This document shows positions 2,945-48,800 of a stretch of DNA of 64,000 nt, piece after piece. This stretch comes from Yuukianura sp. NJ FZ-2021 (taxonomy: Eukaryota): positions 6,386,001 to 6,450,000 of the forward strand of contig CM102283.1 of NCBI GenBank assembly GCA_046563655.1. Direction: 5' to 3'. The position numbers and the translations under genes were made by a program. The stretch's first letter is position 1, and the number at the start of each line of letters is the position of its first letter. The notes below the pieces were generated by a model. The model did no database searches. It saw only the letters and a program-made list of their open reading frames with translations, and was not told where the DNA came from.

Positions 2945-3225
2945 TAGTTGATAGTCTTTCTTTAGTTATCGTAGGACTTTAACGCAATTCCGACTGTACG
3001 TCCGACTTATTTCAAATACCCTGACATTACCTAATGACTAAATCTTAGACTAAAATAAAGTTCAAATCATGTTTGCCTCTTACCTTAAATTTGGAGAAGA
3101 TGGGCGTAGTATCCAGAAAATTGATTGGCTGGATACTTCTCCGGATCGAAATTAATTGTTGTCACCCAGTTGAATTAATTGTTGCACCGTGGTTTAATTA
3201 ATTGATTCTCACTTCTTCGTGTAGT

Positions 3226-6143: not shown

Positions 6144-6720
6144 TGCCAATTCGTGTTCAATTCCTGATGATGAGAAAACAGTTATTTGGGATACTAAATT
6201 TTTGAAAACAGGAAAACACGAAACATGGAACTTACGTAATCGTTTTTCAAATTAGAATCCAAAATAGTCCAACGTCCAGTGCAACGTCTTTCGATGAGCG
6301 TAATTCACCCTGGTTCAGCAGCGTTTCAATTTTATTATCCAAAATTTTGAGATCTAATTTTCCAATAACTCCAGAATTTGTTTAAAATGTTTTAGAACTC
6401 AAGAAAACTTTCCGTTTGTGGAAACATATTTCCTTGGTAACACAATAGTTTTGGTTCAAATCCGCACTATAATTTTTATTGCAACTCAGCATTCTTCAAA
6501 TTGAGAGTAAAAAGACTTTTGGATTTGACACTAAACATAATTAAAGCATTTATTATGGCATCGGTTACTGACTTTTGAGTAAGAAGATCTTCAGTTGTAT
6601 TATACAATAAGTAACAAAATTAACAAATAAGTTTACAAAGAATAAGTTGAAGTTATCACTGCTCATTAAATTACGTTAAAAAGTTTTACAGGTGATCCAC
6701 TCTTAAGCTAAAACCTACAG

Positions 6721-11200: not shown

Positions 11201-14200
11201 GAGACAACGGAGGTGGTCAGCACATTCCGAGTCAGCAGTACATTCCACTGAAATTGTTTATAAAAAATCTGTATCAACAGGATTTTTCGAAATTTTCAAA
11301 ACCATCATACTAAAATTGTGTTTTTTTTTTTTTTACAAGAATTCTTACATTTGAAGCATGTTAAGAGGGGATTTCCTGAGTATCCTTCTCGGCAGGCTGA
11401 TTTTAAAAAAAGTTTTAAAATTAGTACAAAATTTTTGAATTAGGCCCATTTTTTGTATGGAAATACAATGTTAAGCTTACTACAAGTCGGAAAATGATTC
11501 AAAACTCTGCAATTGCTGTTTTCACCACAGTTGCAAGGATCTTGGCATCGTTGATTCACACAAGCCTCTCTTGCTGGACATTCATCATTTGAGCGACATC
11601 CTTCAATTGCTGAAAATTTTTTGGGGAAAATAAGTTTTAAACTGTTTTTTTTTTTTGAAAACTTTGAAATAGACTTACGAGTTGGAGGTGGGGTGATGTA
11701 GCGACACTCTGTTCGAGCATCACCAGTGAAACCTGCCGTTCAGTTTAAGAAAAAATTCATTGGGCATTCAAATATTATACTTAAATCTAAAATTATTTAC
11801 TCATACACAGCCCGGTATTAAAAAGTTTTAAATAGTTAAAATACAAACCTGGGGGACAACGGCAACTAGGTTGATGATTTTGAGCCAGGCAGTACGCATT
11901 TGCAGCACAAGCGTCTCTTCTGCAAGCATTCTCACATCTCTGGTTGATACAAGTTTGTTCATAGCGACAGTCGGAGTTAGCTTCACATTCAGGTCTCGGT
12001 GTTTTCACAACTTCACATCCAGGATATCCATATGGATTGCCAACAGTTCCTGGAGGACATGCACAAGAGGCACTGGTCGATCCTGACCTGGGTGTACAAA
12101 CAGCACTGGGGTCACAGAAATTCAAACAGGGGTCAACCGGCGGTCTTTCTTCTCTGCGGCAATAGGACGTAGCGTCTCCCACGAATCCTGGTGGACAAGA
12201 GCATGTTGCCACGTGATATCGGACGGCACACAAAGCTCCGACCCCACAAGGAGTTTTGAGACAAGGATCGACGCATTTGTTTTCGGAACATGCGCGAGTA
12301 AAGTCACAGTCTTCGTTTGTAACACACTCCGGGCGGCTGGTGTAAATTTTTCAAAAATTTTTGTTTACTAAAACTGCACAAACTTCAAAAAAAATTTTTT
12401 TTGTATATTAAAACGTACCAAGATGGAGGGCTTCCGAAATAAAATGGAAGACAAGAGCAAGAGGCGTAGTCACCAACAGATCGGCATGTACTGTGTGGTC
12501 CACAGTCAGTTATTCTACATGGGTCAACTTTAACGTCAGGTCGAGGTGTTGGCTGGACTATTTGAGTACATCGAACTTCTGGCTGCCCAGTGTATCCTTG
12601 GATACCTACAGAAAATGACGGGAAAAATTCAAAAAGTTCATAAATTTTGAAATTTTAGCTATTTTACAAAAAACAAAACTTACAGAAACATCTTGGAATG
12701 TGATTGGCAGTTCGACACAAAGCGTTTTCTCCACAGAATCCTGCCTGGCTACATCCATCTCTGCATTTGAATCCATTGCAAATCTGATCACTTCGACACT
12801 GTTGATTGACAGTACTAAAAAAATGAAAATGTAGAAAAATGTAGATGTTTATATAACGACAAATTACTTAAACTTGAACTAAAATGAAAACATTGTAATA
12901 GTGGCAATTCGAGAAAAAAATAGTTTAAAACCTTTGCTTAAAACCAGGGTTGGGTGGTTTTTGGTTTTTTTAAAATAAAAACCAAAAAAAAACCCTGATT
13001 TTTGGTTTAAATCAGGTTTTTTAATGGTTTAAATGAAAAGTGGGTTTTTATCCAAAATAGTGTGCTAAAGGTGTATTTTAGTTAAAATATTGTAAATAGT
13101 GTAGTTACTTTGTCCACTTCTGACTAAAATTTGACAACTAAAGGGAAAAAACTGTTAAATAGAACAAAGAGCATCATAATATAACACAACAATTTGCATG
13201 GACAGTTTCTGCACAGTTCTGGACAGTTTCTGCACAGTTCTGGACAGTTTCTGCACAGTTCTGGACAGTTTCTGCACAGTTCTGTCTGTCTGTACAGTTT
13301 CTGCAGTCCACAGTTCTGGACTAAAACATTTGACAACATGGTGTAAAGAGAGAAAATTTTTAACTTTTTGTTAAATAGAACAAAGAGCCTACTAAATTTT
13401 TAACGTTTTGGAATTTGGAATATAAAAAAGATTGATTTTCCTACTAAATTTTTAATTTGCACGGACAGTTTCTGCACAGTTCTGGACAGTTTCTGTACAG
13501 CTCGGGACAGTTTCCGCACAGTTCTGGACAGTTTCTGAACATTTCTGGACAGTTTCCGCACAGTTCTGGACAGTTTCTGCAGTTTTGGACAGTTTCTGGA
13601 AGTTCTGGAATTAGTTATTTAAAAAGATTGTTCTGGACTAAATTTAGGAATTTGGAATTATGTTATTTAAAAAGATTGATTTTCCTACTAAATTTTTAAC
13701 GTTTTGGAATTTGGAATTATGTTATTTAAAAAGATTGATTTTCCTACTAAATTTTTAACTTTTTGGAATTTGGAATTATGCTATTTAGAAAGAGTGATTT
13801 TCCTACTAAATTTTTAACTTTTTGGAATTTGGAATTATGCTATTTAGAAAGAGTGATATTCCTACTAAATTTTTAACTTTTTGGAATTATGCTATTTAGA
13901 AAGAGTGATTTTCCTACTAAATTTTTAACTTTTTGGAATTTGGAATTATGCTATTTAGAAAGAGTGATTTTCCTACTAAATTTTTAACTTTTTGGAATTT
14001 GGAATTATGCTATTTAGAAAGAGTGATTTTCCTACTAAATTTTTAACTTTTTGGAATTTGGAATTATGCTATTTAGAAAGAGTGATTTTCCTACTAAATT
14101 TTTAACGTTTTGGAATTTGGAATTATGTTATTTAAAAAGATTGATTTTCCTACTAAATTTTTAACTTTTTGGAATTTGGAATTATGTTATTTAAAAAGAT

Positions 14201-17200
14201 TGATTTTCCTACTAAATTTTTAACGTTTTGGAGTTTGGAATTATGTTATTTAACAAGATTGATTTTTCTACTAAATTTTTAACGTCTTGGAATTTGGAAT
14301 TATGTTATTTAAAAAGATTGATTTTCCTACTAAATTTTTAACTTTTTGGAATTTGATAATTTTGCTCAGACTTTTTAACACCAGAGACTTTAGCAATTTT
14401 GCTCAACGCTGCTTAAATTGTGACCAGGACGATTGAACGGGTGTGGGGCGGAGCCCCAGCAAGCTTTGCGCAGCAAAGCTTTTGGTGTTCTATTTACCTT
14501 GAATTTAAACCAGGTTTTTATTTAAAAAAAAAAACACTTGGTTTAAACCATGGTTTAAATCACTGGTTTAAATCAATTGGTTTAAACCAGCCAACCCTGC
14601 TTAAAACTCCTTTGAAATATTACGAGATTACCATTCCGGTTGACATCCAAGTCTTGCATCTCCAAAGTAGTCGGGCAAACATGAGCCTTAAAAGAAAATA
14701 GTTTTTAATTAATAACAAAATATTAAATATTGATTAGGTACTATTTTGGCAGTTTTTGTACTAACAAGATGCAACTCCATTGTGTTCCTTGCAAATGGCA
14801 TTTGATCCGCAAGGATTCGGCTGACAAGGTTGAGTTTTGGTCGGGGGTGGAGGTGGTGGAACGCATTCGACGAAAGCATTTCCGACTAAACCAGGGTTAC
14901 AGAAGCAGTTCGGTCTGTGCGAAATTGTTCGACACTGAGCTCCTCGACCACATAATCCAGGGCACTGAAATTAAAAAAATGCATAGTTTGAAAGTTATTT
15001 TGAAAAGTTTTAAAAATATTCAACTTTTGAAATCGTTCAACTTACAGGGTCAACACATTTGTTGTTTCGACAGTTTAGGTTGCTGGCACAATCTTGGTCA
15101 ATGGTGCATTCTGCCCGGCCTAGAGTTGTAAAATTGACAAATTAAAATTGACTAATTCAAATTTGAAACTAACAAAAAATTTATGCTATTACAGTATGGC
15201 ACTTGTCCAAAGTATCCCGGGCGACATTGACAAACACAAACTCCGCCTCGATCTTGGCAATCCGCATTGTCTCCTCCAGGAAATGGGTCACATGGATTTT
15301 TTCGGATTTCAGGTTTCACTGGTGGTGGTGGCTCGTAACAACGACTGAACGGGTCTCCAATAAGCGGTGCTGGACAACTGCATAGCGGAGAGTGTCTGAT
15401 GACCCGACATTCGGCTCCTATTCCACACTGGACTCTTGGACACGGGTCAACGCAACGCTGTTCAATACAAGCTTTGTCTGACGAGCACTCGGGATTGGAT
15501 AAGCACTAAAATTAACAAACAATCAATAATTTTTTGGATTTAAGTTGATTTTTTTTTACCTAGAATTCAATTTTCTGCTTTTGCTAGGAGTCAAATGTCG
15601 TATTACTTACCTCTGGTCTACAGTTTGGAGGACTTCCGATGTAAGTGGCCATACAGGAACAAGATGCTGCGTTATTAACAACTCTACAAAGACTGTAAGG
15701 TCCACATGGATTTGGAACGCAGGGGTCCTGTTGTGGTGGTGGACGTTCTGGAATTCTGTAGCACCCTTGGAATGGATTTCCCGTCATTCCTGGTGCGCAT
15801 GTACAGTATGGAGCATGGTTTCGAACTGAGCAAATTGCAGAGATTCCACAAACTCCGGGACACTGTTGACAAAAAATTGAAAATAAAAAACAAATTTCCA
15901 AAATTAAAATTTATATAAATTCAACTAATTCAAAAATAAGCTGTAAACCGGATGTACACAAGTAGCGACGGACAGACAGACAGACAGGCAATGCTTAAGC
16001 ATATCGTAGGTTTTGCTATTTTGCTGCTCTACTTACCGGATCTCCACACTTGTTTCCATAACATGCTTTTTCTTGAGGACAGTCATCGTTCGTTTCGCAT
16101 TCCGGCAAGCATGCGACATACGGATCACCTCTCTGGAATTCCGGCAAACATATACATGCACCCACTCCATTTCTATTTTCACATCGACTGTTTCTTCCAC
16201 AAGGTGACGGATTGCATGGATCCACTTTAACTGGTGGTGGTGGTGGCAAATTACATCCGAAGCTAGCGTCTCCCACATAGCCATCTTTACAAAAGCACTG
16301 TGGAATGTGATTGGACACATAACAGTTAGCATTGTACCCACAGAATCCTGGACACGGATCTCTACATTTCTCTTGGACGCAAGCCTTGTCGTAGTTACAA
16401 TCAGCAGAAATCATGCACTCTGCAAAATAAACGACATAAACGTTTATATAACGACAAATAAAATATTTACTAAAGTAACGTCAATTAAAATTAAAATTTG
16501 TAATACCGGGGTGGCAACTAGAGTGAAAAAATAGTTTTAAAATTTGTTTTTAAAAACCCCTTAAAAAGTGTAGTTTGAGGAAATGCCTTTAGATTAAGAA
16601 ATCTCATTTTTCTTCAAGCCTCTGTGTCACTTTCAGTGTCAAAGGTAGCAACGGAGTCCAGCTTTTTTACGAAGTCGAAGTCGATATGGAGATTCGAATA
16701 CCAATCTCCATACACTTTGTCCCGGTTGTGTACCCATTCCTCTCGTTCGCAGTCAGTTTGATTTGTACAAAATATGTATTTGCGACCCAACTTTTCGGCT
16801 GCGGTAAACTCGAATTGCCGATTGAGTATCTCAAACTTCTTTGACGGCAGATGTTCTGGATCGTTTTCAACATTTCAAGAACGTACTTGGTAAAATATCT
16901 CACAAGCTGACGCCAATTTCATGTTGCTCTCTAGTCCACTACCAGCAAACTGAATATACTTTACTACGAAGCATGACCAGTGTGGATCCGCGATCAATTT
17001 GCCGAGTTCTGTCTTGAAATTTCCGTTGCTGTATCTTTCGAAGTGATGACGTGAGACCAATTCTGAACGGTTGCGTCTCATTCTTCCAACGTACCACTTA
17101 AGTGGAATAGAAGCGTCCTTCAGAGCTGCCATTAATTCAGCAGCAGTGGCGTTCCGGCTTTGCAGACACAGAACGAAGTAAACCTGCACAGAACCGTCGT

Positions 17201-20200
17201 CGGTTGTTCTGCTTTTTTCCACCTTAGGAAGTTCACTTGCCATTGACAATAACAAAGTCTTTTTTTCGGCAGTGGATGATTTTCTGGAAGATGTTCTACC
17301 ATAACCAATTTTTTGGTTGGACATTGCTCTCAGGTGAGCACAGTTTCTAAAATCAAAGAAAATTAACCCTGCTAAAAAGTACTAATGAATGCATAAATCA
17401 TATAAATGAAGTGAAACTTACAAGGCATTTGGGTTTCTATTGTGAATTCTGGTCTTGTGCCCTGTGAGCGAAGTTGAAGTGGCAAAAGTCGCGCTACATT
17501 CGCTGCACGCAAACGTCTTCTTGGAAGCAATATCTTTTTCAGTCTTCTTGGCTCTAGATTCACGTTGTTGCTCGTTGCTGGAACAAAAAGAATTTCCATA
17601 TTTGCTTGCAACTCAAAATTGCAATTGACTTTGACTAATTAATTGCTGAATCAGATGATAAACAATAACAAACTTACTGCACTGCCTTCAAGTTGGGTGT
17701 TCCATGTTGGTAAATAACATGAGAGTAAATGGCGGAGTAAATTGCCGGTTCCTTTTTGTCTCTAATGCATTCGACCGCATTACAACAGTATAAAAACTGG
17801 TCTTTACGTTTCGGATTCCTCACTTTGCTCTTTGTCATCCAAAACTTAACGTCGGTCTTTTTGTCTGGCGGACGCCGTTGGGCCTAAGATTATTAAAAAA
17901 ACGATTAAGAATAACATGACAGGGTGTAGTACTAGCTAACTACTTATTTCACTTACACTGGTTCCAAACTGAAACCGCGATGTGGAGGGTTGAGGTTCTG
18001 GTTGACCAACCACGTCCTCAGGAACAGCACTATCCCCATCATCGTCCTATCGAAATAGTTCAAATTGGAAATCAGTGAATGATTGTGTGTGATTATTAGT
18101 GATGGAAGACATTACTTGTACATAACAGTTACTTACTGATGATAAGGTGACAACTGCGGATTCCGACATGTCGTCGTCATCTCCACCACACACATCGTCA
18201 CTGCCTACGGATTCTTGTTCCTCCATCTTGAATGAGGTCAATCGATCTCCAGTTGCCTCACTTTTACTCAGTAAGTTGCACAGAACGACAGAACAAACGA
18301 CAGACTTGACAAAAGAAAACAATCTCTGTTTGTTGTTTTTGGATCTATCTCCCTTCCAAATATGGACAACCAAAATAATAGTTTAAAACTTAAATTATTT
18401 GCTCAGCCCGGCATTAAAATGTTTTAAATAATTAAAATAAGGAAATTTTTAGTTATAATTATCGTATAATTTAAAATAGATGAAGACAATAAGATTACCT
18501 GGTCGACAGAACGGAGGATTTCCAAAGGTATAGCCAGGTAGACAGCTACAAACTGCCACTTCGTTCACAACAGTACAAGTGCTGTATGGTCCACAATTGG
18601 CCAAGGCACAAGGATCCCTCCTAGCTGGAATTTCTGGAACAACGATTGGATAGCAACTGTAGAATGGATCTCCCGTCATTCCAGCAGAGCAAGTACAAAT
18701 GGCCGAGTGGGAAATTACTTTGCATTGGGCAGTAGGTGAGCATGCGCCGATGCAAGGATCCAAGCATTTGTTTCTTACACAGGCTTTGTTTTGAGCACAG
18801 TCCGCGTTGGTATAGCATTCTGGACGGCATGGGGTATCCGGAGGCGATCCGAAATAGTCTCGAATACACCGACAAACTGCTACGCCATTTCGGTCACTAC
18901 ATTCTGCATTTGGTCCGCATGGATTTGGATAACAGGGTTGGCTCGGCAGAGGTTCCGGAATGATTCGGATTTGAGTACATCCTGAAAATGGGTTCCCTTC
19001 ATACCCTGTATTACAGGAGCAAGATGCAACGTGATTGGTTACTGAGCATCGGGCGTTGTGACCACAAAGTCCTGGACATGGATCGGTACATTTGTTTCTG
19101 CTACAAACTTTAGTTGTAGGACAATCTTCGTTTAGGCTGCACTCAGGTCTGCACCCAGTATATGGATCTCCGAAAAATTCTCCAAGGCATGTGCATGCTC
19201 CAACACCGTTTCGTTCTGTACAAGCAGCATTCGGTCCACATGGAGACGGGAAGCATGGATTCGGAGGCGGGGTAGGCTGGACACGGATCTCGACACATCC
19301 AGAACTGTATGGATCGCCTTCATAGCGATCATTACAGTAGCACTGTGGCATGTGACTCTTGACAAGACAGTAGGCGTTGAAACTGCATGTTCCTGGACAT
19401 GGATCTTCACAACGTTGTCGTACACAGGCTTTTGTCATTGGACAATCTTGGTGCACCAAACACTAAAATTAACAAATTAATTTGATTAATTAAGGCGATT
19501 TTTTCATTCCTTGTCACATTTACTTACCTCTGGTCTGCAGTTGGGTGGTCGTCCAATGTAGCCTACACGGCAGGAACATGTAGCCGAATCACCGAATCGC
19601 CGACATTCAGCATATTCGCCACAATCCAAACATGGGTCACGTGGAATTGGAATTATTGGTTCTGGTTTTCGTACTTCCTGAATACATGCTTGAAATGGAT
19701 TTCCGACCAAAGGATATGGACAACTACAGAGTGGATTGTGGTTGATGACTCTGCAAACGGCTCCCACGCCACACTGGGCTCTCGGACATGGATCTTCACA
19801 TCGCTGGTTGATACAACTTTTAGTCAGGTCACAATCGTTGTTAATAACGCATTCTGCACATTTAAACGACATTAATGTTTATATAACGACAAATAAAATA
19901 TTTACTAAAGTAACGTCAATTAAAATTAAAGTTTGTAATACCGGGGCGACATGCTGGTGGAGAACCGATGTACTCCTTTTGGCATGCGCAAATGGCAACT
20001 CCGTTTTCATTTCGACAAGTACTGTATGGACCGCAAGGTGACGGGAAACATGGATCTTGTGGAGCTGGTGTCGGTATAGGTTCTGCAGCTAAAGTTAAAA
20101 ACAAAAGTGTTTAAAAAAAATCAACAAAATGTACCGGAAAATGCTTTATTTTTTTGAAAAGTTGAAAAAAAATGAAACAGTAACATACGGATTCGATAGC

Positions 20201-23200
20201 ATCCGGAGAAGGCGTTTCCAGTAAAACCTGTGTCACATTGGCACTGCGGCGCATGATTCAGGACGTAGCATGACGCTTGAAATCCACACACCCCTGGACA
20301 TGGATCTTGACATTTGTTTTGAATACAAGCTTTGTTTGAAGCACATTCTTCATTGACTTCGCATTCCCTTCTACAGCCAGTATATGGATCCCCAAATGGA
20401 TATCCTTTTTCACATGTGCATGATCCAGCACCATTTCGTTCTCGGCAAACAGCGTTGTAAGCACAAGGATTCGGTGAGCAGACATTGATCGGTTCAATAC
20501 GTTCTGTTGAAAACAAAAATCAAAAAATGTAAATAAAAATTACTTAAAAAAGTGTTACAGTCGAACCCCTAATTGCGCAACACGCTTTGATTGGTTCGTT
20601 TGACTAAAATCTTTTCCCGGCTGCACCGTACGGTTTCAAATTCTAACGCTTCTACACAGATTAGGCCAGATAGAGCGTTTTTTGTCGTGTTTACATGTTA
20701 CAAAAGACTGAGCTAAAAGTTGCAAAATGAGAGGTTCGTCTGTATTTTGGATTTGGAGTTTTTGAATTTTTGAGTTTACGCGGTGGTTTATTGCAATAAG
20801 AGTATGCGTCTCCTGTAAATCCTTCCAGGCAATAGCAGTTTCCTCGATGATTGATTGCTCTACATTCGGCAGAAATTCCACAGCGACCGTCAGCACACGC
20901 GTCACGACATTTTTGATTGACACAGTTTTGTGTCGTGAGACAATCAGCATCAATTGTGCACTCTGCACAAATAGAACATTAGATTAAATGAATTCTGTAC
21001 TTAAACTTCAATTAAAATTACAACATTCTAATACCGGGGTGGCAATTGGAGTGAAAAATAGTTAAAACTTAAATTATTTGCTCAGCCCGGCATTAAAAAG
21101 TTTTAAATAATTAAAATATAGAAATTTTTAGTTATAATTATCGCATAATTTAAAATAGATGAAGACAATAAGATTACCTGGTCGGCAGAAAGGAGGTTTC
21201 CCTACGTAATCCTTCCAGCACGTACAAATTGCCAAATCGTTTTGATTGGTACAGTCTGCGTAGGGGCCACAAGGAGTCGGAATACAAGGATTTGGTTTTG
21301 GTGTTTCAATTCTCAGCGGTTTCTCACAGGCTCTGAATGGATCTCCAGTGTAACCTAAAAATAGCAGCAGCATCAGCATTTTAGCGGCTTTTCTTTCAAG
21401 TTTCTAGTTTAGCCTAAATACAGACCAAGATCACAGGCGCAGTTGGGACTGTGGTTGATGACTCTGCAACTGGCAAAATGGCCACACTGTGTTGTGAGAC
21501 ATGGGTCAACACACTTCTGGTTTATGCAGGCCTTGTCCAGTGGACATTCTGAGGAGGAAACACATTCTGGTCGGCTAACAATATAAAAAACATCGGTACA
21601 TGAGGTTTTCATGTATTTTTTTTTCAAATGTATGATTTTGGTTTTTAATTTAGAAATACAAATTCAGTACTTACCAAGATGGAGGACTTCCGACATAATT
21701 TGGCAGGCAACTACAAGAAGCAACTCCGTTCGTATCACGACATGAGCTGAATGGTCCGCATGGAGAAGGATAGCAAGGACGCGGTGTAACTTGTTCTGGT
21801 AAAGGTGGAGCTGTGAGTTCAAAATTTCAAAAATTATTTCAGGAAAAAAAATGAAAAAATGAAAGATCAGCAATGTTAAATTTTGGCCAAATTATTTCTG
21901 TCTACTGCGTAGCTACTGCATACTCCGCATTTACAATACAAGAATGACGCGTTCAGCAAAAAACCTTAAATCGTCGACAGAAGCAGCTGCAAAAATCAAA
22001 TGCCCGCAACGCATGCGCATCAGTATTTAGCGAAAGTGCGAAAATCGAAGTCTACTTATATTTTCTACTCGACTTAAAAATTATTTTTAGTAAAAGGTAG
22101 ACTCAAATAAGCCAAACTGCAGCAAGTCTCCAGATGAAAAGAACAAAAGATGCTGAAGAAGTGTTCCTGAAAAAACTAAAAAGCTCGAGTTAAAATTATG
22201 TTAAGTTTTGAGCAATTTACGAGCAGTGATTTCATAAATATGAGAATGAGCAGTGATATTTTTTAAAAATGCAGCAATTCTTACGCAGACGGATCAAATG
22301 ACAACTAGAATATGGATCTCCAGTAAAACCTGTAAATTCATTTATAGAAATTCTCCAATTAGTGAAACCCGTCATTAAATTATAGAAATTCTCCAGCGTA
22401 GTGTGTTACCCAGAACGCAGTCGCAAGTAGCAAAGTGATTTCGGACAGTACATGTTGCTTGGTAACCGCAAACTCCAGGACAAGGATCCACACACTTATT
22501 CCGAACACAGGCAAGGAGTGGTGAACATTCATCGTTCAGTGTGCTATATAAAAATTGATGTTTACATAAAAGACAAATTATAATATTTAATTCAACTTCA
22601 ACTAAGTTTAGAACACTTTAATACCGGGGTGGCGAATGGAGTGAAAAAATAGTTAAAACTTAAATTATTTGCTCACACTCCGGTATTAAAAAGTTTCAAA
22701 GGCTAATTATAATATGGATTTTAGACTATAATTGTAGCATAGTTTAAAATAGAATAAGAAGGTTACCATTCAGGCCGACAGCCTTGATACTGAAAATTTA
22801 AAAAAAAATGTAATTCAACGTGACCTTCGACCTTTACATTTTAACAGTGGCTTGGCAAATGTTGTAAATTGAGTTTACCGGGTCTCCGAAAAATTCTGGG
22901 AGGCAGCTACACGCTCCAACTCCATTTTGAGCTTCACATCTAGCATTTTGTCCACAAGGAAAGGGGTCACAGGGGTCATTGGGAACGGGAGGAGGAATTC
23001 TGGTAGGAGGGGGTTCGCATCCGCGTATGGCGTCACCAACAAAGTTTTCGAGGCAGTAGCAAGATGGATTGTGATTCACTGTTCGGCAACCGGCATTGTA
23101 TCCGCAACTTCCTGGGCACTACACAAGAATAACGGGGTTGAAAATTGACTGTGACCTTTGACCTCTGAATTTTTTTTCAAAATTCAGAATTAACTTACAG

Positions 23201-33789: not shown

Positions 33790-33823
<34 letters not shown>

Positions 33824-36800: not shown

Positions 36801-39800
36801 CTGTATGGCCCACAAGCTAAGAATAAAAAAAATGCATAAATTAAATTCAAATGCATAAAAATTTTCAAACATATTTTTTTAATCGTGAAAACGAATAATT
36901 TTGTTTACGAGATGGGAAGCATGGATCTGTTGGTTCAGGCGGTGGAAGTCTAATTTCGACACAGTTGTAAAACGGGTCTCCAGTAAACTGCAGTATAGGC
37001 ATTACAAAGTTGTAAATAATTAAAATATAGAAATTTTCAGCTATACCAAGTGTGGCATAATTTAAAACAGAATAAGAAATATTATATTACCGTTGGAGGG
37101 CACTGGCACAAAGGACTGTGATTGCTCACTTTACAAATGGCCGTAGGTGGACACGGTCCTGGACATGGGTCAACGCACTTTTGGTTTCTACAAGCTTTGC
37201 TACAAAATATAAACCAAATAATTTTAGTACACTATTTAATTTTTAAATATATTATTTAAATGTTGGTTTCTGTGTTTACTATTTACCTGAGGTCACATTC
37301 ACCATTGGTCAAGCACTCTGGAGAACAGTTAGGTGGACTACCCCTGTAATCTGGTAGACAAGTACAAACTGCAACGCCATTTCGATCCAAACATTTTGAA
37401 AACGGACCACATGGATTTGGTTCACAAACTCTCAACGGTATAACTTCTGGCTCAAATTTGTGACATCCAGTAAATGGCTGTCCGGTGTATCCCGGTATAC
37501 CTAGATGAATACATTCAAGTAGTAATTTAATGTTCGAAGATTCATAAATTAGCATATCCATAATGAAGTCTTACAAACACAAGATGGGATGTGGTTGGAC
37601 ACACGACATTCGGCATTCGGACCACAAAGGCCTGGACATGGATCGATACATTTGTTTCGGTTGCAAGTTTTTGTGTTCGGACAATCTTGGTTCACTGTTT
37701 CGAAACAAACTCAAATTGACTGAAGTTATTTAAACATACGTTAAAATATTTTTAATAAATTATAATTTAGTTATGATTAAGTTAGTTAACGTACGAGTAC
37801 ATTCCGGTTGGCAAGCTGTGTAGGGATCTCCCTGAAAATCCAATATAGGAATTTAAAAGAATTATAAATTAAATAGATTAATTAGAATTAAAAACTTGTA
37901 ATACCGGGGGTGGCAATTCGAGTAAAAACAAACACTTCAAAAAATCTTTCCTTTAAACCCCTTAAGTGTATTTTTTTTAGTAAAAGCCTTTTTTTTTAGA
38001 ATTTTGAAGCATTAAGCTTCCTTCAATCGTCGTTTTTGTCACTTTCAGCATAATTTAAAATAGAACAAGAAATATTACATTACAAACCTGAAAATCTGGT
38101 AAACATGTGCATGCCCCAATTTCTCCTCGTTCTTCACACCGTGCATTTAGGCCGCAAGCTAAAACAAAAAGTACAGTATTACTAAAATGTTAAGTCATTT
38201 TTATGTCATATTGTATTTCATTTTATATTATTAGTTAATGTATCATAATTTTAGGGCTTAACATACGACTTGGATTGCAAGGCATCAGCGGTGGAGCAAT
38301 TTTCGGTATTGGGAAGCATGAAGTGAATGGATCCCCTGTGGACGGAAATTAAAAGAAATGTAACGACAAAACAAATCTTTAAACTTCAATTAAAATTAAA
38401 ACATTCTAAATACTGATGGGGCAATTCGAATGAAAAATAGTTAAATCTTAAATTATTTGCTCACAACTTGGTATTAGAAAGTTTTAAATAAGTAAAATAT
38501 AAAATATAGTTATGATTGTCGCATAATTTAAAATAGAATAAGAAATATTAACATTACATTACCTGTGTAATGGTCCAAGCATCGGCACACCGGTCTGTGG
38601 TTGATGGTATTGCAAAGAGCATTTTCTCCACAAGCAGAAATACAAGGATCACGACACTTTTCTCGAAGACAGGCCAAGTTACTTGGGCAGTCCGAGTTAT
38701 CTGTTCAGTAAATTCAGAAAAGAGTTGTGAAAAAACTAAAATTTTGAAAAATAAATCACAGAGTACTTGCCAATGCATTCGGGTCTACAATTCGGTGGAG
38801 ATCCAATTTTTCCTTCCTCGCACGAACAGAAATACTGATCATTCCTTGTAACACATCGTGCATGTAAACCGCATGGAGCTTTCAGGCATGGATCAACCCT
38901 GACATCCGTGTCATGTCCAACGACTGGTGGATTTGGAACACATCTCGTGAAAGGGTCCCCGGTATGATCAACGGGGCAGCTACAGATTGCACTGTGTTGT
39001 AGTACATGGCATCTGGCCAACGGAGCACAGGCAGCATCCAGACATGGATCGACGCATTTTTCATTACGGCAGGCTTTGTCAAGCGGACATTCAGAACTTG
39101 ACGTACACTCTTAAAAAAAGACATAGATGTTAATATAACGACGACTAAAATATTTACTAAAACGTCAATTAAAATGAAAACATTCTAATGCCGCGGGGTG
39201 GCACTTCGAGATATTAAAAGGCATTAAAAAGTTTTAAATAATTAAAATATAGAAATTCTTCATTACCGCTGCCGGGCAACTACAGATTGCACTGTGTTGT
39301 AGTACGTGACATCTTGCCAACGGAGCACAGGCAGCATCCAGGCATGGATCGACACATTTTTCGTTCCGGCAGGCTTTGTCCAGCGGACATTCAGAACTAG
39401 ACGTGCACTCAGGCTTACAAAACGGTGGATCTCCCACATATCCGATTTTACATGTGCACACTGCAACGTCGTTTACGTTTCGACAAGAGCTGTATGGCCC
39501 GCAAACTGGTCCTCTACAAGGATCTTGAGGAATTACTGGCGGAGGTGGAATTCTGGTACAACCAATGGCAGCATTCCCGGTGTAACCAGCTTGACAAGCT
39601 ATTCAGCACAAAATCAATTAATTTAGTACAATGTTAATTAATACAAATTATATTAAGTTAATAAAAGTGACTTACTGCAGAGCGAGGCGTGGTTTCGAAC
39701 AGAGCATTCACTATTTGTGCCGCAAGAACCGATGCAAGGATCTTTGCATTTGTTGGCGACACAAGCTCGGTCATAGGGACAGTCAGAATTTTGCAAGCAC

Positions 39801-42800
39801 TCCGGTCTGAAGCATTTCAATATGTTTGTAATAAGTTAATTTAATTAGGATTAAGAATTAATTATGGTATGTCACGGGAATTATTTAAAACAAAGGGTAT
39901 TATTTGGAATTTTACGGTACCTGCAGCCAGTTCTAGCATCTCCATAGTAATCCTTCAAGCAAATGCAGCTTCCAGCTCCGTTCCGTTCGACACAATTTGC
40001 ATTGGCTCCACATGGACTTGGTGGACCACAAGGTGAAATCGGTTTCTCGGTGACGACGTCAATTCGTTTCGGTTCTTCAACGCAGTCTCGGAATGGATCG
40101 CCCGTAAAACCTAACGTTACAGAGATCCAGGAAAATATACATGGTGTGGTACGGTTGAACATGTACACAGGCCAAATTATAATCCAGGCAAAATATAATC
40201 CAAATATATCAACTAACCGGGTAGACATGTACACAATGCTACATGTTGAGTTGTACGACAGTGAGCATTGGTTCCACACGCACCGACACAAGGATCAGTA
40301 CATTTGTAGTTGTTACAAGCTTTGTTTGTGGGGCAGTCTGGGTTAATGGAGCATTCTAGACGTTTGAAAGACATAGATGTTTATATAACAAGTAAAACCT
40401 TTACTAAAACATCAATTAAAATTGAAACAATGTAATACCCGGACGGCAATTTGGTGGGAAACCGACATAGCCCTCCAGGCAACTACATGTACCCTGCTCA
40501 TTGTGAACGCGACAACGACTGAACGGGCCTAAAATGAATTTAAAATGCTTAAAATTTTTCTAAATATTTTGAAATTTGGCAGCGAAATGGCTTACCACAT
40601 GGAGATGGAGAACATGGGTCAACTGGTGGAGCAGGAATGCGAACGCAAGCTACAAATGGATTTCCACTCATGTCTTGCGGGCATGTACAGATTGGCGAAT
40701 GGTTGAGAACACGACAAATTGCATTCTGGGCACATGGAGTTGGACATGGGTTGACACATCGCATGTTGTCGCAGGTTTTGTCCAACGGACAGCCAGAGTT
40801 GGTCACACACTCAGCGACACAGTTCGGTGGGCTTCCTTGGTAGTTCGGTAGACAAGAACAGGTCGCAACTCCGTTTAGAACTCGGCATTGGCTGTTGAGG
40901 CCACAGGCTAAAATTTTTCCGGAAAAAAAAACTTTAACAAATACTGATTCTTCTAAAAAAAATCTTTGCGTTGGTCTTACGCGACGGTGAGCATGGATCT
41001 GTCGGTTGGGGTGGCGGAATGCGGAAACATGATCTCAATGGTTCTCCAGTAAAGTTCGGAAGGCAAGTACACACTGGAACGTGGTTTCGTACTTGACACT
41101 GCGCATTAGCTCCACATGCTCCGTCACTGCATGGATTCTTACATTTTTGACGAAAGCAAGCCTTGTCATGAGGACAATCAGTGTTCAACACGCTGTAAAT
41201 GTAGATGTTTATAAAAAAAAGACAAATTACAATATTTAACTTGGATTAAAACTAAAATGTTCTGATACCGGGGTGGCAATTAGACTGAAAAAATAGTTGA
41301 AACTTAAATTATTTGCTCACAACCCGGTATTAAAAAGTTTTAAATAATTAAAATATAGAAATTAATTTTTAGTTATAATTTAGTAATAATTATCGAATAA
41401 TTTACATTACCATTCTGGACGGCATGCAATTTCGGGATTTCCGCTATGTTCTGGAATGCAAATGCAGACGGCTACTCCTCCTCGGTCTTCACATACTGCG
41501 TTGATCCCACATTGATGCTGGTAACATCCGTCTTTACGGACGTCAGGTTCAACGGGGATGGGTTTGCAGGAAGTAAACGGATCGCCTAAAAAGTTTTGGG
41601 TTGGTAATTTTACTGAAAAGGTCAACGTAATTAGTAGCTCGATTTTTGATCTCTACGGCAAGCTCTTCCTCAAAACCTTCAATTCTTGTTAAAGTACTAA
41701 CTTCACTAGTTGCAATTTGTTCTACCGAATTAAATCCCGTTACCGATAAATCCTTCGTTGCAGTAACAATTCGTCACATGATTGATGATGCGACAGTAGG
41801 CTTGGAATCCACAAGGTGCATTGCCAACACAAGTATCCGTACATTTTTCGTTGACGCAAACACGATCATTCGGACAGTCTTCATGGATCTGGCTAAAATG
41901 GAAATATAAAAAAATGTAGATGTTTAATAACGCCAAATTATAAGATTTACTTCAACTTCAACTAAAACATTCTACCGGGGTAAAATATTTATTCGAGGAA
42001 AAAATAGTTAAAACTTAGCTTGTTAGCTAACTCCCCGGTATTAAAAACTTTCAAAGGCTAATTATAATATGTACTTTAGACTATAATTGTCGCATAATTT
42101 AAAATAGAAGAAGAAAATAACCTTACCATTCTGGTCGGCACTGATCATTTGCAACATAAATGTAAAACAAAAAATTTATGGAATGAATTTTCTTCAGAGT
42201 CCTTAAAAACTTTTTTTTTGAACAAATTGTGATCATGCTGTGTATAACTTACGTTTGGTGGTGCACCAAAATATCCCCTTTTACAAGTACAAATCGCCCG
42301 CGTATTTTCAACTCGACATTCTCCATAAATACCGCAAGGGTCTCCTCGGCACGGTTCGACTCGTTCCGGACGCTCTGTATCAACAATGAACAATGGAATA
42401 ATTTTACTATAAACTGCATTAAAAATATATAACTGAAATCATTAATTTTTACCTGTGACGACGATAATTGAGCAGCGCGTCAGTGGATCACCGGTAAAAC
42501 CTGGCGTTACAGAGATTTAGGAAATTTAGATGATTAACGTCAAATACAATACTTTACTATATCGCCAATTAAAATGAAAACATATTGTAATACCGGGCTT
42601 GCAATTCAAGTGAAAAAGTCCTAAAAATATAGAAATTACCAGGTTGGCAGTAGCACATTGGAGAGTGATTGACAACTCTACACTTGGCAGTGGATGCGCA
42701 GACTCCTGGACAAGGATCCACGCATTTGAAGTTCCTACAAGCCTTGTCTATCGCACATTCAGAATTTGAAGTACTGTAGAAGTACATGTAAAAAAATGTA

Positions 42801-45800
42801 AACGTTTATATAACGACAAAGCATAATATTCAACTAAATTGAAAACATTTATAATCAGAACAAGACATGTTACATTACCATTCGGCAGAGCAGTGTGGTG
42901 GTGATCCTGGAAAATGAAATATTCAGTTGTAAATTGTAAAAATTGAAAATCCGAAATCAAATTTTAAAATAAGTTAAAAGGTCAAACGTCAGATTTTACC
43001 GATGTAGTTTTTGAGGCAAGAACAAATTGGAACCCCATTTTTGACTATACACTGACTGTAAGGACCGCATGGGCTTGGAGAGCACAAATCCTGCGGAACT
43101 GGGGTCAAAGTTCGACGACATCCTTGCAATGGGTCCCCCTGGACGTATATAGAAATTCTGGTTATCATTTTGAACGCAACTATCTAGAATGTAATTAATT
43201 ACCTGGAAGCCTTCAGGGCAGTAGCAAGACGGTATGTGATTGTAAGTTTTGCAGAGAGCTCCGTTTCCACAAGTTCCAACGCAAGGATCGATACATTTGT
43301 TGTTGAAGCAAGCTTGGTTCAGTGGACAGTCTGAGTTGTGGATGCATTCGACACGACAGAGTAAATATGGGTCTCCTTCAAATGGTGCGATGCAGTGACA
43401 TGTCGCCACGTCTCCGTTGGGACGACATTCGGCATTGGCTGCACAGGGTGACGGATTGCAAGGGTCAACTATCACTGGCGGTTGGATTTTGGTGCACATT
43501 GTCAAAGAGTCTCCACGAAATCCAGCTTGGCAAATGCAAACTGCAATGTGGTTGTAGACGTGGCAAATGGCATTGACTCCACAAACATTCCCAATACACG
43601 GGTCAACACATCTTTCTTGGACACAAGCTCGGTTGTTTGGACAGTCATCGTTGATGCGACATTCGGGACGACAGAAGGGCGGTACGCCTATTAAAACATA
43701 TTTGAATTAATACCTTAAACACATTTGGTATATTTATGGTACCCTAAATCCTCGCCTATAACGCATGCGATATTTCAGATAACAAAATGTTTAGGGTGGA
43801 AAACTTCTTTTTTTTGAATTTCTTAAATTCTTAAATTTTCGAAATTAAGAGATTTCTAGGTCACGTAATATGCATGCTGGGTATAGATAGATCTAATTCT
43901 TATTTAAAATTTAATCATGGACAAAGGAACAAATTATATTGTACGCGAATGTGAGGTATATTCGAGGATTTAGGGTAACCCAATCTACTTTACTGGGAAC
44001 TTTACCATAATATCCTGTGTCGCATGTACAAACTGCGTTGGACCCTTCAGTACGGCAAGAAGCGTACATTCCACATGGATTTGGATTGCATGGCAAGTAA
44101 GGCGCTGGAGTTCGAATTTGGTCAGGAACTACTTGGCAGAAACGTTCCGGATTTCCTGTAAGTCCTGGAGGGCAACTACAGTACGGAACGTGATGTCGGA
44201 CGTAGCATTGTGCACCTTGACCACACCTTCCTCGACATGGATCATCACATTTGTACTGAATACACGCTTGATTTATACCACAGTCCGAATCGACAATACT
44301 AAAATAGAATAAGAAATATTAAAATAAATGTATATAAATAGATATAAATAATTTTAAAATAGATAAGAAGTATTACCATTCCGGCTGACAGTTTGGTGGT
44401 GCTCCCACATAGCCTGCGAGGCAGGCACAGACTACTCCGGAGTTTCTGATTGAGCAAGACGAGTAAGGTCCACATGGGGATGGTTGACACGAAGGGGTGG
44501 GTGGGGGAAGATATGGGGGTGGTGTGGGAGTTACACGTTGAGGGGGGTATGGTGGGGTGGGTCGTGGGGAAACAGGGGGTGGGAGGTAGTCGATGGGAGT
44601 CCGTTTGATACAGATTTGCAAAGGAGATCCGAAGTAGTCCTGCGGCAAATAATAACGACAAATAAAATCTTTACCGAAACTTCAATTAAAATGAAAATAT
44701 TCTAAAACGGGGTGGCAATTCCAGAGAAATATTAGCTAAAAGCCTCTTTAGAATAGTAATGTCTCTGAGGAAAGGTCTTTTTTTTTTAATTCAATGATTT
44801 CGCTAATCCACTCCTCGTTTTAAATAATTAAAATATGGGAATTACCGGCGGGCAGTAGCAAATTGGCTGATGATTTTCTACTCGGCAGAGAGCTTTTTCT
44901 CCACAAACTTGGCCATTTCGACAAGGGTCCTCGCATTTGTACTCGTAGCAAGCCAAATGTCGTGGACAATCGGAGTTCAGAATACATTCTAAAAATTTTT
45001 TACATGTTTATATAACGTCAAATTATAATATATACTTAAACTTCAATTCAAATTAAAACATTGAGGCTGGCAGCCTGATTTAAAAAAAATCGAAAATTAT
45101 AAAATTTTGAAACCTACGATTAGTTTCTGAACGAAGAGATTTTTTTTTACCTAAGTTTGGATTTCCATAGTAGTTTTTGATACATTCGCATCGATAAGCT
45201 CCTGCTCCCAAATCAGTACAGATGGCGTTATTTCCACAGGGATTTTGATCACAGAGTTTGCGCGGTGGTAAGTAAGGAGCAGCAGTCGTAGGTTGAATAA
45301 CTACAAATAATTTTGATAATTGATTCAATTTTTTGTCATCATTTCAAAAACTTTCAATAAACAACATGTTTCGATGTAATCTTTCTTACTTTGTTTTCGG
45401 AAGCACATTTTATATGGATCGCCTTCATAATTTTCAACACATGTACAAACTGGCCGATGTTGAACTGAATAAAATAATGGAGAATTATTTGTTTACATGC
45501 GGAATAACAAATTTTTGGTGAAAATTTTGAAAGTTAACTCACCAACTTCACATCTAGAATTGATTCCGCAAGCAGAAATGCAGGGGTCAGTACATCGGAA
45601 ACTGATACAAGCTCGATTTAGTGGACATTCGGAGTTTCTTTGACTAAAATAAAATAGATAAATAATGTAAAATTTTTACTTAAACTTCAATTAAGATGAA
45701 AACATTGTAATAGCGGGGTGGCAATTCGAGGAAAGAATAGTTAAAACTTAAATCATTTGCTCACAGCCCGGTATTAAGAAAGTTTAAATAATTAAAATAT

Positions 45801-48800
45801 AGAAATTTTATGTTATAATTATCGCATAGTTTAAAATAGAATAAGAAATATTGCATTTACCATTCAGGTTGACATGGTGAGTAGCCGTAGGATCCAGTAC
45901 AGGCACACATCGACACGCCCGGTTCGTATAGACTCAACTCTCCATTGCCCCTGCAAGGCTGCCTTGGCTGTTCGATGACCTCTGCGGAGGTCAATTCAGG
46001 TCAAAATTCAAAACAAATGGAATACAAAAACATTTTTTTTACATATATACAAATCTTACTTGGATAACAGGCGAATTGAGGATGGCCATAGAATCCCTGC
46101 GGACACTGACATGTCACGACATGGTTAGTACAAGTACAACTTGCTCCCTTGCCACAAGATGCAGGACAAGGGTCAACACAGCGAAGTGCATCGCAAACTC
46201 TACTAGACGGACAATCACTATCCAGAAGACATGCAGGCCTACAGCCTTTCGATGGATCCGAACTCAGAAAGCCGGGATTGCAAGTACAGATTTCGTTTCG
46301 TCCAGAAGGGGTACATCGCGTATTTGGTCCACAAGATGGAGGTTGACATGGTGACTTCTCAATAGGTTGCGGAAGAATTACATCAAAACAGCGGTCATAA
46401 GGATTTCCTGATAGTCCGTTTGGACAGACACAAACAGGACGACGCAGCTCGTGGCGACATTCGGCTCGAAAACCACAAGCACCAATACATGGATTGATAC
46501 ACTTCTGCCTGAGGCAAGTCTTCGTCTGCGGACAGTCGGAGTCTGACTGACATTCTGGGATTAAAAGAAATATACATGTTTATATAACGTCAAATTATAA
46601 TATTTACTTAAACTTCAATTCAAATTAAAACATTCTAAGACCGTGGTGGCAAGTCGAGTGAAAAATATAGTTAAAACTTAAATTACCTGCTCACATTCCC
46701 GGTTTTGAAAAGTTTTAAATAATTAGAATACGGAAATATTTAGTTATAATTGTCGCGTAAATTAAAATAGAATAATAAGAAATACTACATTACCAGGTTG
46801 GCATCCAGTTGTACTAACTGGTGACCCCTTCATTCCCGTTGGACAAACACAAACGGCCTGGTTTCGCTCTTCGTAGCAACGTGCTCCAGGGCCACACGGA
46901 CTTGGTTCACAGGGTGAACGAACTTCTCGGCAGCCTTCATACTAAAAAAAATTCAAAAGTTTAATCTTTAATTTGAATGATTTTAATTGTGACCTAACCA
47001 AATGAATCGAATTATAAGTTTAAGTGAGTTTAATTATAAGTTTAATTATAAGTTTACGAAATCTTCTATCTTTAGTCTTTAAGTTTCATCCAAGTGTTTA
47101 TTAATTAAGGTGTGGAATTAAACTCAAAAGAGAAAATAAAAAAAAAAGTTTAAGTGAGTTGGAACAAAAGTGAAATTTTTTTCTTCATTTTCAAAAAGTC
47201 AAAAATAGCAAAGTCCAAAGACTTGCAAAGGAAGGACTCTTTCCACCAAAAAAATTTTTTTTTTGCATAAAACATTTGGAAATGGCTTAAAACGTCCTAA
47301 AAAGTGACTATGAAAAAAAAAATTCGAACAACGTTAAAATTTTTTTTTCCGGATCCGAAAAATTGTGGTGGGTTTAGTTTGGAAGTTTCAAAAAAAATTA
47401 TATTTAACTTACTCCGTTTCCAGTAAACCCCGGCTTGCACGTACAAACTTCTTGATTAGAGACAACTGAACACAGCGAATTCGGACCACACAGGCCGGGT
47501 TGACAAAATCGTCGTGTCGGCGGTGCACATCGATGATACGGATTTCCAACAGTTCCAGCCGGACCTATATTTATATAACACTTGAAGATAAAATTAATGC
47601 GTTCATAATTAATTTAACATTTAAATATTTACAGTAACATGGTGGAGACCGTGTAGTGTCACAAACAGCTCCCGCCGCGCATGGATTTGGTTCGCAAATG
47701 TTGACAACTTCAGCTGGTTTGCAGTAAGGTGGTGACCCTGTGTATCCTTTCAAGCAAGAGCAAACCGGTCTTCCGCCTGAAACCATGCATTCGGAATTCG
47801 GACCACATGGATTCGGTGAGCACAGTTTTCCTTGTGGCACTAAAGTTAATTAACATTAATAATTAACTAATTTCTTGTATTTACATCTTTAATAATTCAC
47901 AAATGAAAGTCACTATACCTCTGCAGCCAATCATGGGATCTCCTTCAAAGTATTCTGGACAACGACATACAGGTCGATGACCTCTGACCTCACACATGGC
48001 ATCTACTCCACAACGACACGGATTGACGCATCTTCGCTGAACACAGGCTTCGCTATCTGCGCATTCGCTGTCACTCCGACATCCCTCTGCACTTATTCCT
48101 TAAATTCAACATCGGACATGTACATTTTAAATCAAAATTTTGTTTCAAAAAGTGCAAAAAGCAAAAAAATTATGGCTGCAGATTATTTAACAAATTTTTA
48201 CGTTTTCTTGTGCAACCAATGTAAGCATTTCCCTCGAATCCATTCAAACACTGACACTTGGCGGCTCTGGAGTTAAAAACAATAAAATGTAAAGCATTTT
48301 AAAATATTTTTTATAATATGTTATAATATTTCCGGCGAATTTTTTTTAGTACCGATTGATCACGTAGCATTCCGAGTTGTCTCCACATGAGTCCGTTGAA
48401 CATGGCGACCGACATACACGGTTGAGGCGGTCACAGAAAAGATGAGGTGGGCAGTCTTGGTTGTACTGACAAACCGACGTCTGGCTGGGCGTCCTTTGAC
48501 ATCCATAGCTGGGACTGCTGTCCAATCCGTCCTTGCCTACAAATCACACATTAAATGTGTCACATTACCCCACAAATGATAGGGTAAAGGTCAAAGGTCA
48601 ACGTACATCGGCAAAGAGCTGCATGGTTAGCTCCATAGCAAACTTCGTGTGAACCACACGGGTCTCGGACGGAACAAACTTTGCTACATTTTTGGTTCAG
48701 GCACACTTCGTCATCTCCGCACTCATAGTCCCTTCGACATCCAACTAAAAAAGTACAAAGTGAGCAAAAAGTCATTAACTTAAGAAACAGTATAGAATGA

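Follow-up and report, generated by a model that had tools for sequence, protein, structure and literature searches.

A family of 26 related introns in a dumpy-like gene of Yuukianura sp. NJ FZ-2021 and its probable multiplication within that gene

Introduction

The origin of new spliceosomal introns in animals is an old open question, and it is raised with some force by a giant dumpy-like matrix gene on the minus strand of a 64,000-nucleotide stretch of DNA from Yuukianura sp. NJ FZ-2021 (NCBI GenBank assembly GCA_046563655.1, contig CM102283.1, positions 6,386,001 to 6,450,000 of the forward strand). This whole 64-kb stretch is referred to below as the window, and positions are counted from its first letter. 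Why are 26 introns of this gene recognisable as versions of one another when the exons around them have diverged, and what was copied: the exon together with its intron, a transposon that is able to splice, or the intron itself? The answer favoured here is that the 26 introns probably descend from one intron-sized sequence, which was multiplied within the gene after its EGF and DPY modules had diverged. In our reading the family is introner-like and of the non-segmental same-gene duplication type, the unit copied being the intron from GT to AG. It would be a rare case in which the parents of new introns are still visible. The locus combines 26 related introns, several positions and derivative forms, and filled and empty sites in both paralogues and relatives, and the gain, decay and exact loss of introns can be studied there in one place. 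The rival mechanisms of reverse splicing, templated repair and transposition differ at this locus in predictions that can be checked.

The host gene

The gene extends over 6727-53678 on the minus strand and encodes an N-terminal EGF part, an EGF/DPY array, a ZP domain and a membrane anchor. Its predicted product is dumpy-like because single exons match Dumpy_DPY (2.5e-21), EGF_3 (3.4e-15) and ZP-C (2.4e-11) in Pfam, and its modules have the arrangement by which dumpy is recognised, with EGF modules lying among the DPY modules and a ZP domain at the C-terminus (PF21164, PF12947, PF00100). The gene model was produced independently of any annotation by our own splice-aware dynamic programming, with two places corrected by hand. 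It contains 120 introns in a coding sequence of 26,652 nt that is free of in-frame stops, with a median exon of 55 codons and one intron per 74 codons. For dumpy of Drosophila melanogaster 78 coding exons are reported (PMC2930355).

One family of introns

A first-pass annotation of the window had proposed that a set of the dumpy introns are copies of a single element, and this is borne out: the three sequence blocks that it quoted are found at all 26 of the intron starts listed, and an all-against-all BLAST comparison of the 120 introns places 26 of 26 in one cluster. This comparison gave 479 same-strand high-scoring segment pairs against 9 on opposite strands; eight further introns attach to the cluster by weak links only (34-42.5 bits), and 71 of the 120 have no BLAST match to any other intron. 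At E<=10 a profile built from 8 full copies gave 31 rows on the plus strand and 4 on the minus strand, none of them outside 11777-46813; at E<=1 its second iteration gave 27 and 11, respectively, none of them outside 11772-46809. Wherever a row is on the minus strand, it coincides with the palindromic middle block of a copy on the plus strand, so that all copies share a single orientation, that of the gene. The profiles matched 24 of the 26 introns at E<0.01. The intron at 42774 reached E 0.085 and then 0.0027 in the second iteration, and that at 36398, which has no profile match, is tied to the family by the all-against-all BLAST, as 42774 also is; the alignment score of 36398 to 42501 is 35.5, with a shuffle maximum of 19.5.

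The results on location and orientation refer to the window. The ranges 1-11700 and 46900-64000, where other genes, the ZP end and the N-terminal EGF part are situated, are free of copies, and the window profiles found none in the other 94 introns (12.7 kb) or the flanks (about 17 kb) in either orientation. Copies in both orientations in intergenic DNA, which had been named as grounds for abandoning the proposal, are thus absent from the window. Confinement of the family to the array holds within the window, but not its restriction to DPY modules, as 18 copies lie at DPY-module starts and 8 of the 26 at EGF-module ends. Were insertion equally likely throughout the window, all 26 copies would interrupt coding sequence with a probability of 1.3e-10. 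The copies fill whole introns in sense, as had been claimed, in that their removal restores the open frame and the module motif and the profile spans full copies from end to end. The similarity reaches both intron ends and stops there, with profile coverage of 7-246 of 250 in full copies, and donor ends are alignable at all site types while the exon flanks are unrelated. All 26 copies share one host gene of paralogous EGF/DPY modules, and do not lie in the non-paralogous hosts by which introners are usually recognised. Beyond the window, a metagenome scan with a 25-nt core pattern of the element gave 0 matches. Contig ends of public sequencing runs show copies with flanks that are absent from the window, one flank being DPY-like and one not Cys-rich. 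Over the element core the summed contig depth exceeds that of unique sequence by a factor of only about 5-6; contig depth is a poor gauge of copy number, and it gives a weak hint that hundreds of copies are unlikely.

Introns versus exons

If the introns are so alike, are the exons that flank them alike as well? For eight full copies at DPY starts, with the exon flanks compared in register, the mean distance is 0.22 for introns (range 0.13-0.33), 0.54 for exons and 0.65 for third codon positions, and in 28 of 28 pairs the introns are closer to each other than the exons. Between the two distance matrices there is no correlation (Mantel r -0.03, p 0.49), and the congruence of intron and exon relationships that had been set up as a refutation is therefore not found. 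The exons around the copies have indeed diverged, since flanks of 120 nt are at best 65-70% identical and often unalignable, whereas the introns are 83-92% identical in local alignments. Outside the motif the exon flanks are 35-55% identical, and element-bearing modules are no more alike than other modules. The intron tree, built from 15 copies, is star-like (of 12 inner branches, 1 is starred and 10 are open), and changes of site class on it number 7 against 7.4 in shuffles. Simple co-duplication is rejected as the main cause of the family.

Positions, phases and boundaries

The 26 copies, all on the minus strand and named here by their first coordinate, occupy eight codon positions in all three phases. 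Among 57 DPY starts recognised by the pattern C..[EQ]C, all introns at +10 nt (6, phase 1) and all introns at +14 nt (10, phase 2) are of the element type; ordinary introns at these starts take nine other offsets, from -24 to +12. When 44989 and 12815 are included, whose modules the pattern missed, there are 7 copies at +10 and 11 at +14. Those at +10 are the full copies 46555-46793 (239 nt, inside CQP/EC) and 20963-21177 (215 nt, CRP/EC; 92% identical to the ends of 16420), the long form 16420-18498 (2079 nt, CRP/EC; a full copy with 1840 nt in its middle block), a partial copy at 44989-45150 (162 nt, NPNL/EC; block 1 and other sequence), and three copies of a short type at 40356-40438 (83 nt, CRP/EC; block 1 with a GTATTAC donor), 33226-33310 (85 nt, CHP/EC) and 19854-19941 (88 nt, CRP/EC). 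At +14 lie the full copies 45644-45860 (217 nt, CQPE/C), 41893-42126 (234 nt, CRPE/C; 14 nt after an ordinary intron, with a micro-exon between), 41193-41410 (218 nt, CRPE/C), 34727-34951 (225 nt, CRPQ/C; adjoining the 12-nt micro-exon 34952-34963) and 22544-22766 (223 nt, CRPE/C). The same position holds the deletion derivatives 44299-44376 (78 nt, CQPE/C; block 3 end), 42774-42878 (105 nt, CSAE/C; block 1 and block 3 end) and 35918-35995 (78 nt, CRPE/C; block 1 variant as in 20963), two derivatives in recently duplicated units, 27753-27828 (76 nt, CRPE/C; block 3, unit U2) and 25387-25471 (85 nt, CRPE/C; block 1 and block 3 end, unit U1), which have the AACTATCGC variant in common, and finally 12815-14631 (1817 nt, CQPE/C), with block 1, the left arm and the start of the long insert.

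The eight copies at EGF-module ends take six positions. Three are at P/G, namely 42501-42639 (139 nt, phase 1, CYCQP/GFTGDP; a derivative with its donor inside block 3), 36398-36497 (100 nt, phase 1, CYCLP/GFTGDP; short type with the GTATTAC donor) and 11733-11848 (116 nt, phase 1, CRCPP/GFTGDA; a derivative of right arm and block 3 start). The others are at P|D (44640-44845, 206 nt, phase 0, CYCPP|DYFGSP; donor end truncated, part of the long insert retained), T|F (36988-37090, 103 nt, phase 0, CQCPPT|FTGDP; block 3 derivative), Q|GDP (37832-38087, 256 nt, phase 0, CLPDFQ|GDPY; about 100 nt of the long insert), G/DP (38336-38562, a full copy of 227 nt, phase 1, in the Gly codon of HYT-G/DPF) and AA|C (39108-39266, 159 nt, phase 0, CSCPAA|CTSSSEC; internally deleted). 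Three extents differ from those first annotated: a piece at 18374-18514 is actually the donor end of intron 16420-18498, the end of the intron at 12815 is 14631, and that of the intron at 37832 is most likely 38087.

Element introns are distributed 4/11/11 over phases 0/1/2 and other introns 17/65/12, with a Fisher p of 0.0017 for phase 2. A G precedes the donor in 26 of 26 element introns, with the corrected donor of 37832, against 49 of the 94 others (p 1e-6); G at donor +5 is found in 2 of the 26, and the commonest donor of the other introns is GTAAGT. The upstream flank is alike at DPY +10 and EGF-end P/G sites (TGCCNNCCNG|). If the spread was targeted, as the first-pass annotation proposed, the sites have in common only a G preceding the donor and codons of the C-x-P type around it. 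There is no regular target-site duplication, the boundary ambiguity being only 1 nt in 17 of 26 copies.

Anatomy of the element and of its derivatives

Full copies measure 215-239 nt, the median intron of the host gene being 86 nt, and read in gene sense as a donor GTAAT(G/A)TAAT, block 3, the middle block, block 1, a variable tail of 15-25 nt and AG. The arms of the middle block form a perfect 13-nt inverted repeat in the best copy, 34727 (at 34800 and 34856), next to TA. Terminal inverted repeats are absent, since 8 of 8 full copies score within shuffles and the sole inverted repeat is internal. The 3' arm reads TTGCCACCCCG|GTATTA and so resembles an exon end coding C-H-P followed by a donor. 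The short types 19854, 33226, 40356 and 36398 all have the same GTATTAC donor and retain only block 1, and in 33226 the true exon end TTGCCACCCCG is identical to the element-internal stretch, giving a module CHPEC in place of the usual CRPEC. A deletion reaching from the true exon end to the element-internal stretch that resembles it would appear to have given rise to the short types. New-donor forms (GTATTAC, GTAATTYC) are each found at more than one site type, and one deletion junction is common to eight copies at three site types.

Parts of the long insert, from its left end, occur in 16420, 37832, 44640 and 12815, at four different positions, which is why the long form of about 2.1 kb is probably ancestral; the canonical 225-nt form would then probably be one deletion derivative of it that was multiplied. 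The 1840-nt interior of the long form (16546-18385) lies between the near-repeats ATAGTTT(T)AAAA and holds several minus-strand open reading frames of up to 168 aa, for which the Pfam match is one C2H2 finger only. No transposase match was found for these frames in Pfam or in the Atlas (best score 0.76), nor any homologue at E<=0.001 in a collection of proteins of 92-294 residues. The intron at 12815 contains a nested insert of 1655 bp (12945-14599, no strand assigned) that appears to be a non-autonomous hAT-like element, with a terminal inverted repeat CAGGGTTGG(G/C)TGGTTT and an 8-bp duplication CTTAAAAC. Within the insert are a 59-bp tandem array at 13525-14471 and arrays of units of about 22 nt near 13190-13310 and 13470-13560.

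Other identities were considered for the element and set aside. The palindrome does not behave as a conserved RNA hairpin, as the changes by which its arms decay are uncompensated and 46555 no longer has the fold (fold z-score +0.29, against -3.89 in 34727), and no Rfam family is matched in the window. Helitron-like ends were rejected by eye, and pairing of the arms with the exon as a guide, as in group II introns, fits poorly at C-x-P-G and not at all at +14, likewise judged by eye.

Filled and empty sites

Copies of the same site with and without an intron come both from the window and from relatives. At 24851-34400 lie four tandem units of 2.3-2.4 kb, U1 to U4, that are 76-97% alike and form a mosaic in which U2-U4 are close in the first approximately 1 kb and U1-U3 in the remainder (up to 98%), which points to unequal exchange or conversion inside the array. 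The units differ at one GCRPEC site. Here the element intron is present in U1 and U2 and absent from U3 and U4, and an ordinary intron 16 nt upstream is present in U1 and U3 and absent from U2 and U4; presence and absence of both are exact, with 1 nt of ambiguity. The empty paralogous site of U4, GCRPEC without an intron, is at 32470-32520 on the minus strand. The U1 and U2 copies derive from a longer ancestor through different deletions, and the element was therefore probably present in the ancestor of the units and then exactly lost from U3 and U4. The ordinary YS/GCRPEC intron, at 25488-25570 and 30136-30203 against 27829-27850 and 32480-32510, is likewise exactly present or absent between units, and exact intron loss (or gain) is thus not limited to the element.

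For the relatives, contigs of four presumed DNA runs, X1-X4, from two organisms and two studies, were aligned at 80% likeness to 33200-47000. The absences given here are among the contig joints listed, beyond which there are 37 others, and variation need not be limited to element introns. The copies at 35918-35995 and 46555-46793 are skipped by contigs of all four runs, the latter for instance with the empty-site joint 46552>46794 (X4 record 27). At 37832-38087, 256 nt are skipped in X1 and X2 contigs and 8 letters fit both sides; an X1 contig is without 42774-42878, an X3 contig is without 45644-45860, and 44989 has a shorter variant with the joint 44983>45058. X2 record 10 (29 other letters in 412) is without 35918-35995 and keeps the ordinary intron 36057-36150, and hence does not represent a processed copy. 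In X4, contigs of the second organism carry 36988 (record 23) and 41193 and 41893 (record 24). The flanks of the empty-site contigs have no counterpart in the window above 80% identity over comparable lengths, so that the intron-less contigs derive from alleles, from orthologues or from a second locus. For 46555, the nearest relative in the window reaches no more than 88% identity, as would be expected of an old intron that was lost elsewhere and equally of a recent copy from an unseen source. An X3 contig end at 41288 shows a second, diverged copy of the right end of the long interior, from outside the window.

How might the intron have been multiplied?

The absence of terminal repeats, the single orientation and the absence of copies from some 30 kb of neutral DNA all speak for a process based on splice junctions, as does the recurrence of new-donor derivative forms at different site types. 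The most likely route would be one in which the excised intron is re-inserted into the gene's own transcript at splice junctions and then copied back into DNA, and the next most likely a break repair templated in cis from a neighbouring module. Following insertion, copies would decay by internal deletion and nested insertion, and some would be lost again exactly. Taken further, the spliceosomal intron would itself be mobile, re-entering its own giant transcript at new G| junctions in a manner akin to reverse splicing and becoming fixed in DNA. This stronger claim is rather unlikely, though it would explain the exactness from GT to AG, the sense-only orientation, the want of duplications and the confinement to one gene. 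Many of the other 94 introns of the gene, at 11 different positions around the DPY start, could be older, decayed products of the same process. Were it true, this would be the first animal system with identifiable parents of new introns, in which intron gain by reverse splicing could be tested.

Several observations weigh against multiplication of the intron alone by such a route. The copy at 37832 is flanked by a 9-nt direct repeat GATTTTCAG that resembles a target-site duplication and is longer than any at the 94 ordinary introns; the boundary ambiguity of this copy is 9+1 nt. Ordinary introns persist 12-28 nt from five of the +14 copies, which speaks against a long spliced cDNA intermediate. 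Terminal branches of the intron tree are long (median 0.17), so that the burst was not very recent, and presence and absence in the recent units are better read as loss than as gain. The closest intron pairs, 34727/41893 (92% identical) and 16420/20963, are those with the most alignable flanks (65-70%), and 25387 and 27753 were co-duplicated with their sister 2.3-kb units; co-duplication therefore adds to the copy number. The last 15-25 nt before the acceptor vary between subfamilies, and the ordinary intron 40111 weakly shares one subfamily tail. Finally, the distribution of the element is that seen in a single 64-kb window, and the splicing of the copies is a prediction from restored frames and motifs.

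Could the introns nevertheless have been carried along with their exons, from an intron in the ancestral repeat unit, the exons having diverged fast or the intron having been conserved? The array does grow by tandem duplication, as the four 2.3-kb units and the sister copies within two of them attest, and fast evolution of paralogous exons can mimic introners, for which the var genes of Plasmodium are cited in PMC9860276. As a full account it is nevertheless very improbable, as third positions of the flanks are saturated while the much smaller intron differences are uncorrelated with them, the flanks of element modules are as diverged as those of any module pair, and the copies occupy eight positions and three phases. 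Selection on the introns does not rescue the idea, since the large deletions, nested inserts and decay of the hairpin (from z -3.9 to +0.3), together with the lack of an Rfam match, make strong constraint unlikely. Concerted evolution, in which old, unrelated introns were overwritten by gene conversion restricted to introns, could draw on the tendency of tail variants to follow site class, on ordinary introns that also sit at EGF-end P/G (40111, 22330, 21355) and on the unit mosaics with their signs of conversion or unequal exchange. It is decidedly improbable all the same, for the first conversion would need flanking homology where the flanks are 35-55% identical outside the motif, the similarity extends to the donor GT at all site types, the long terminal branches indicate no ongoing homogenisation and the same derivative forms stand at non-homologous positions.

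The remaining explanations invoke an inserted element or a repaired break. An ordinary DNA transposon or miniature inverted-repeat transposable element (MITE), or a transposon-type introner, would be dispersed over the genome, the window showing only those copies that splice. The perfect 13-nt arms next to TA, the long form with its 1.84-kb interior and several deletion derivatives, the 9-nt repeat at 37832 and the contig ends with at least 1 further right end of the long form and with copies in non-window flanks are what such an element would leave. Yet the arms are internal rather than terminal, no duplication is regular, the roughly 30 kb of other introns and flanks hold no copies in either orientation, the frames of the long interior match no transposase, and the summed core depth, weak measure that it is, is only about 5-6 times that of unique sequence. 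An origin of this kind is thus improbable, and a cut-and-paste transposon is the least likely mechanism on the evidence of the window. Repair in cis would instead have copied a nearby intron-bearing module into breaks within module exons, primed on TGC-CNN-CCN-G. Confinement to one locus and the survival of neighbouring ordinary introns follow naturally from it, DPY +10 and EGF-end P/G sites share the same kind of upstream flank, and in the 15-nt bin at the site the element modules resemble one another slightly more than others do (0.73-0.76 vs 0.69). On the other side, downstream junctions are exact and yet without homology between site types, the commonest class of site, that at +14, does not end on the TGC-CNN-CCN-G stretch, and 26 templated insertions of 80-240 nt with both ends precise would need heavy selective filtering, leaving this route unlikely.

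Relation to known systems

The nearest parallel is with non-segmental same-gene intron duplications (SGD), that is, introns duplicated within one gene without their flanking exons (Collemare et al. 2013, PMC3609843). That paper reports 82 such introns in 24 species of fungi, with at most 16 per species and half of them segmental, and three introns in C. elegans. The present introns agree in showing no exon co-duplication and are only loosely near-identical, at 83-92%. They differ from SGD as described there in numbering 26 in one gene and in having subfamilies, a long form, deletion derivatives and eight positions, and, whereas SGD introns are of ordinary length, full copies are here about 2.6 times the median intron of the gene (225 vs 86 nt). 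In our reading the family represents non-segmental same-gene multiplication of introns in an extreme and structured form, here in a dumpy-like gene. With the fungal introner-like elements (ILEs) of the same paper it has several features in common: the repeats are whole introns and exceed regular introns in length, young copies have a stable predicted fold, and sequence and length decay toward ordinary introns. ILEs are described there as without known transposon hallmarks, and Collemare et al. propose spliceosomal retrohoming, or intron transposition in the same transcript, which corresponds to the transcript re-insertion route above. ILEs number hundreds of copies in unrelated genes, unlike the present family, which is known from one gene in a 64-kb window.

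Transposon-type introners of algae, dinoflagellates and others likewise comprise many introns of one family with similarity reaching both ends, and can number tens of copies in one gene (Gozashti et al. 2022, 2025; PMC9860276, PMC12130899). Many of those families are genome-wide and have 3-9 bp duplications and/or terminal inverted repeats, both of which were tested for here and not found. In the account of Gozashti et al. 2022 introners occur in only two animal groups, and intron pairs with similar host proteins were removed (PMC9860276); since such a screen discards these pairs, a one-gene family in paralogous modules would be missed by design. Recent intron gains in Daphnia and Drosophila resemble the present case in presence and absence among close relatives and in weak donors (PMC2809761), but the short direct repeats attributed to them (Li et al. 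2009 as cited in PMC2809761) are seen here at 37832 only, 25 of the 26 copies being without. As Farlow et al. 2010 describe the novel introns of Drosophila, no parental homologue was found for any (PMC2809761), whereas each copy here has 25 relatives. In the var genes of Plasmodium, named in PMC9860276 as a class of false positives, similar introns likewise interrupt paralogues whose coding sequences are dissimilar; they stay at one homologous position, while here positions and phases differ and copies decay freely. Literature searches on insect introners, dumpy intron gain and DPY-module introns, supplementary tables aside, turned up no such family.

Further observations on the locus

Five micro-exons of 12-28 nt stand between an ordinary and an element intron (34952-34963, 22767-22789, 25472-25487, 42127-42140 and 42879-42906) and encode the CRPE stretch. 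Such micro-exons, and the internal exon-like stretch of the element with its resemblance to an exon end, are pitfalls for the annotation of dumpy-like genes. Around the PPxCRPEC boundary (11700-46900) 11 intron offsets fall within about 40 nt over 57 modules, 21 of which are intron-less.

Among the ordinary introns, 40111-40217, at an EGF-end P/G, has its last approximately 25 nt (…TCTCTGTAACGYYAG) in common with 42501 and 36398, with unrelated exon flanks; the tail match scores 20 against a shuffle maximum of 18.5, and this intron may be a decayed member of the family. The introns 19463-19527 and 15506-15610, both at CRPE|C in phase 0, have the same ends, CCAGAG|GTAAGTAA … TGTTAATTTTAG, although BLAST of the 120 introns did not cluster them at E<=1e-4. 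At a larger scale, inverted repeats at 4875-5202 and 63105-63441, of 74-82% identity, bracket the dumpy-like gene; the left one lies inside an F-box-like open reading frame (4505-6028, minus strand), and an inverted pair of paralogues may therefore flank the gene.

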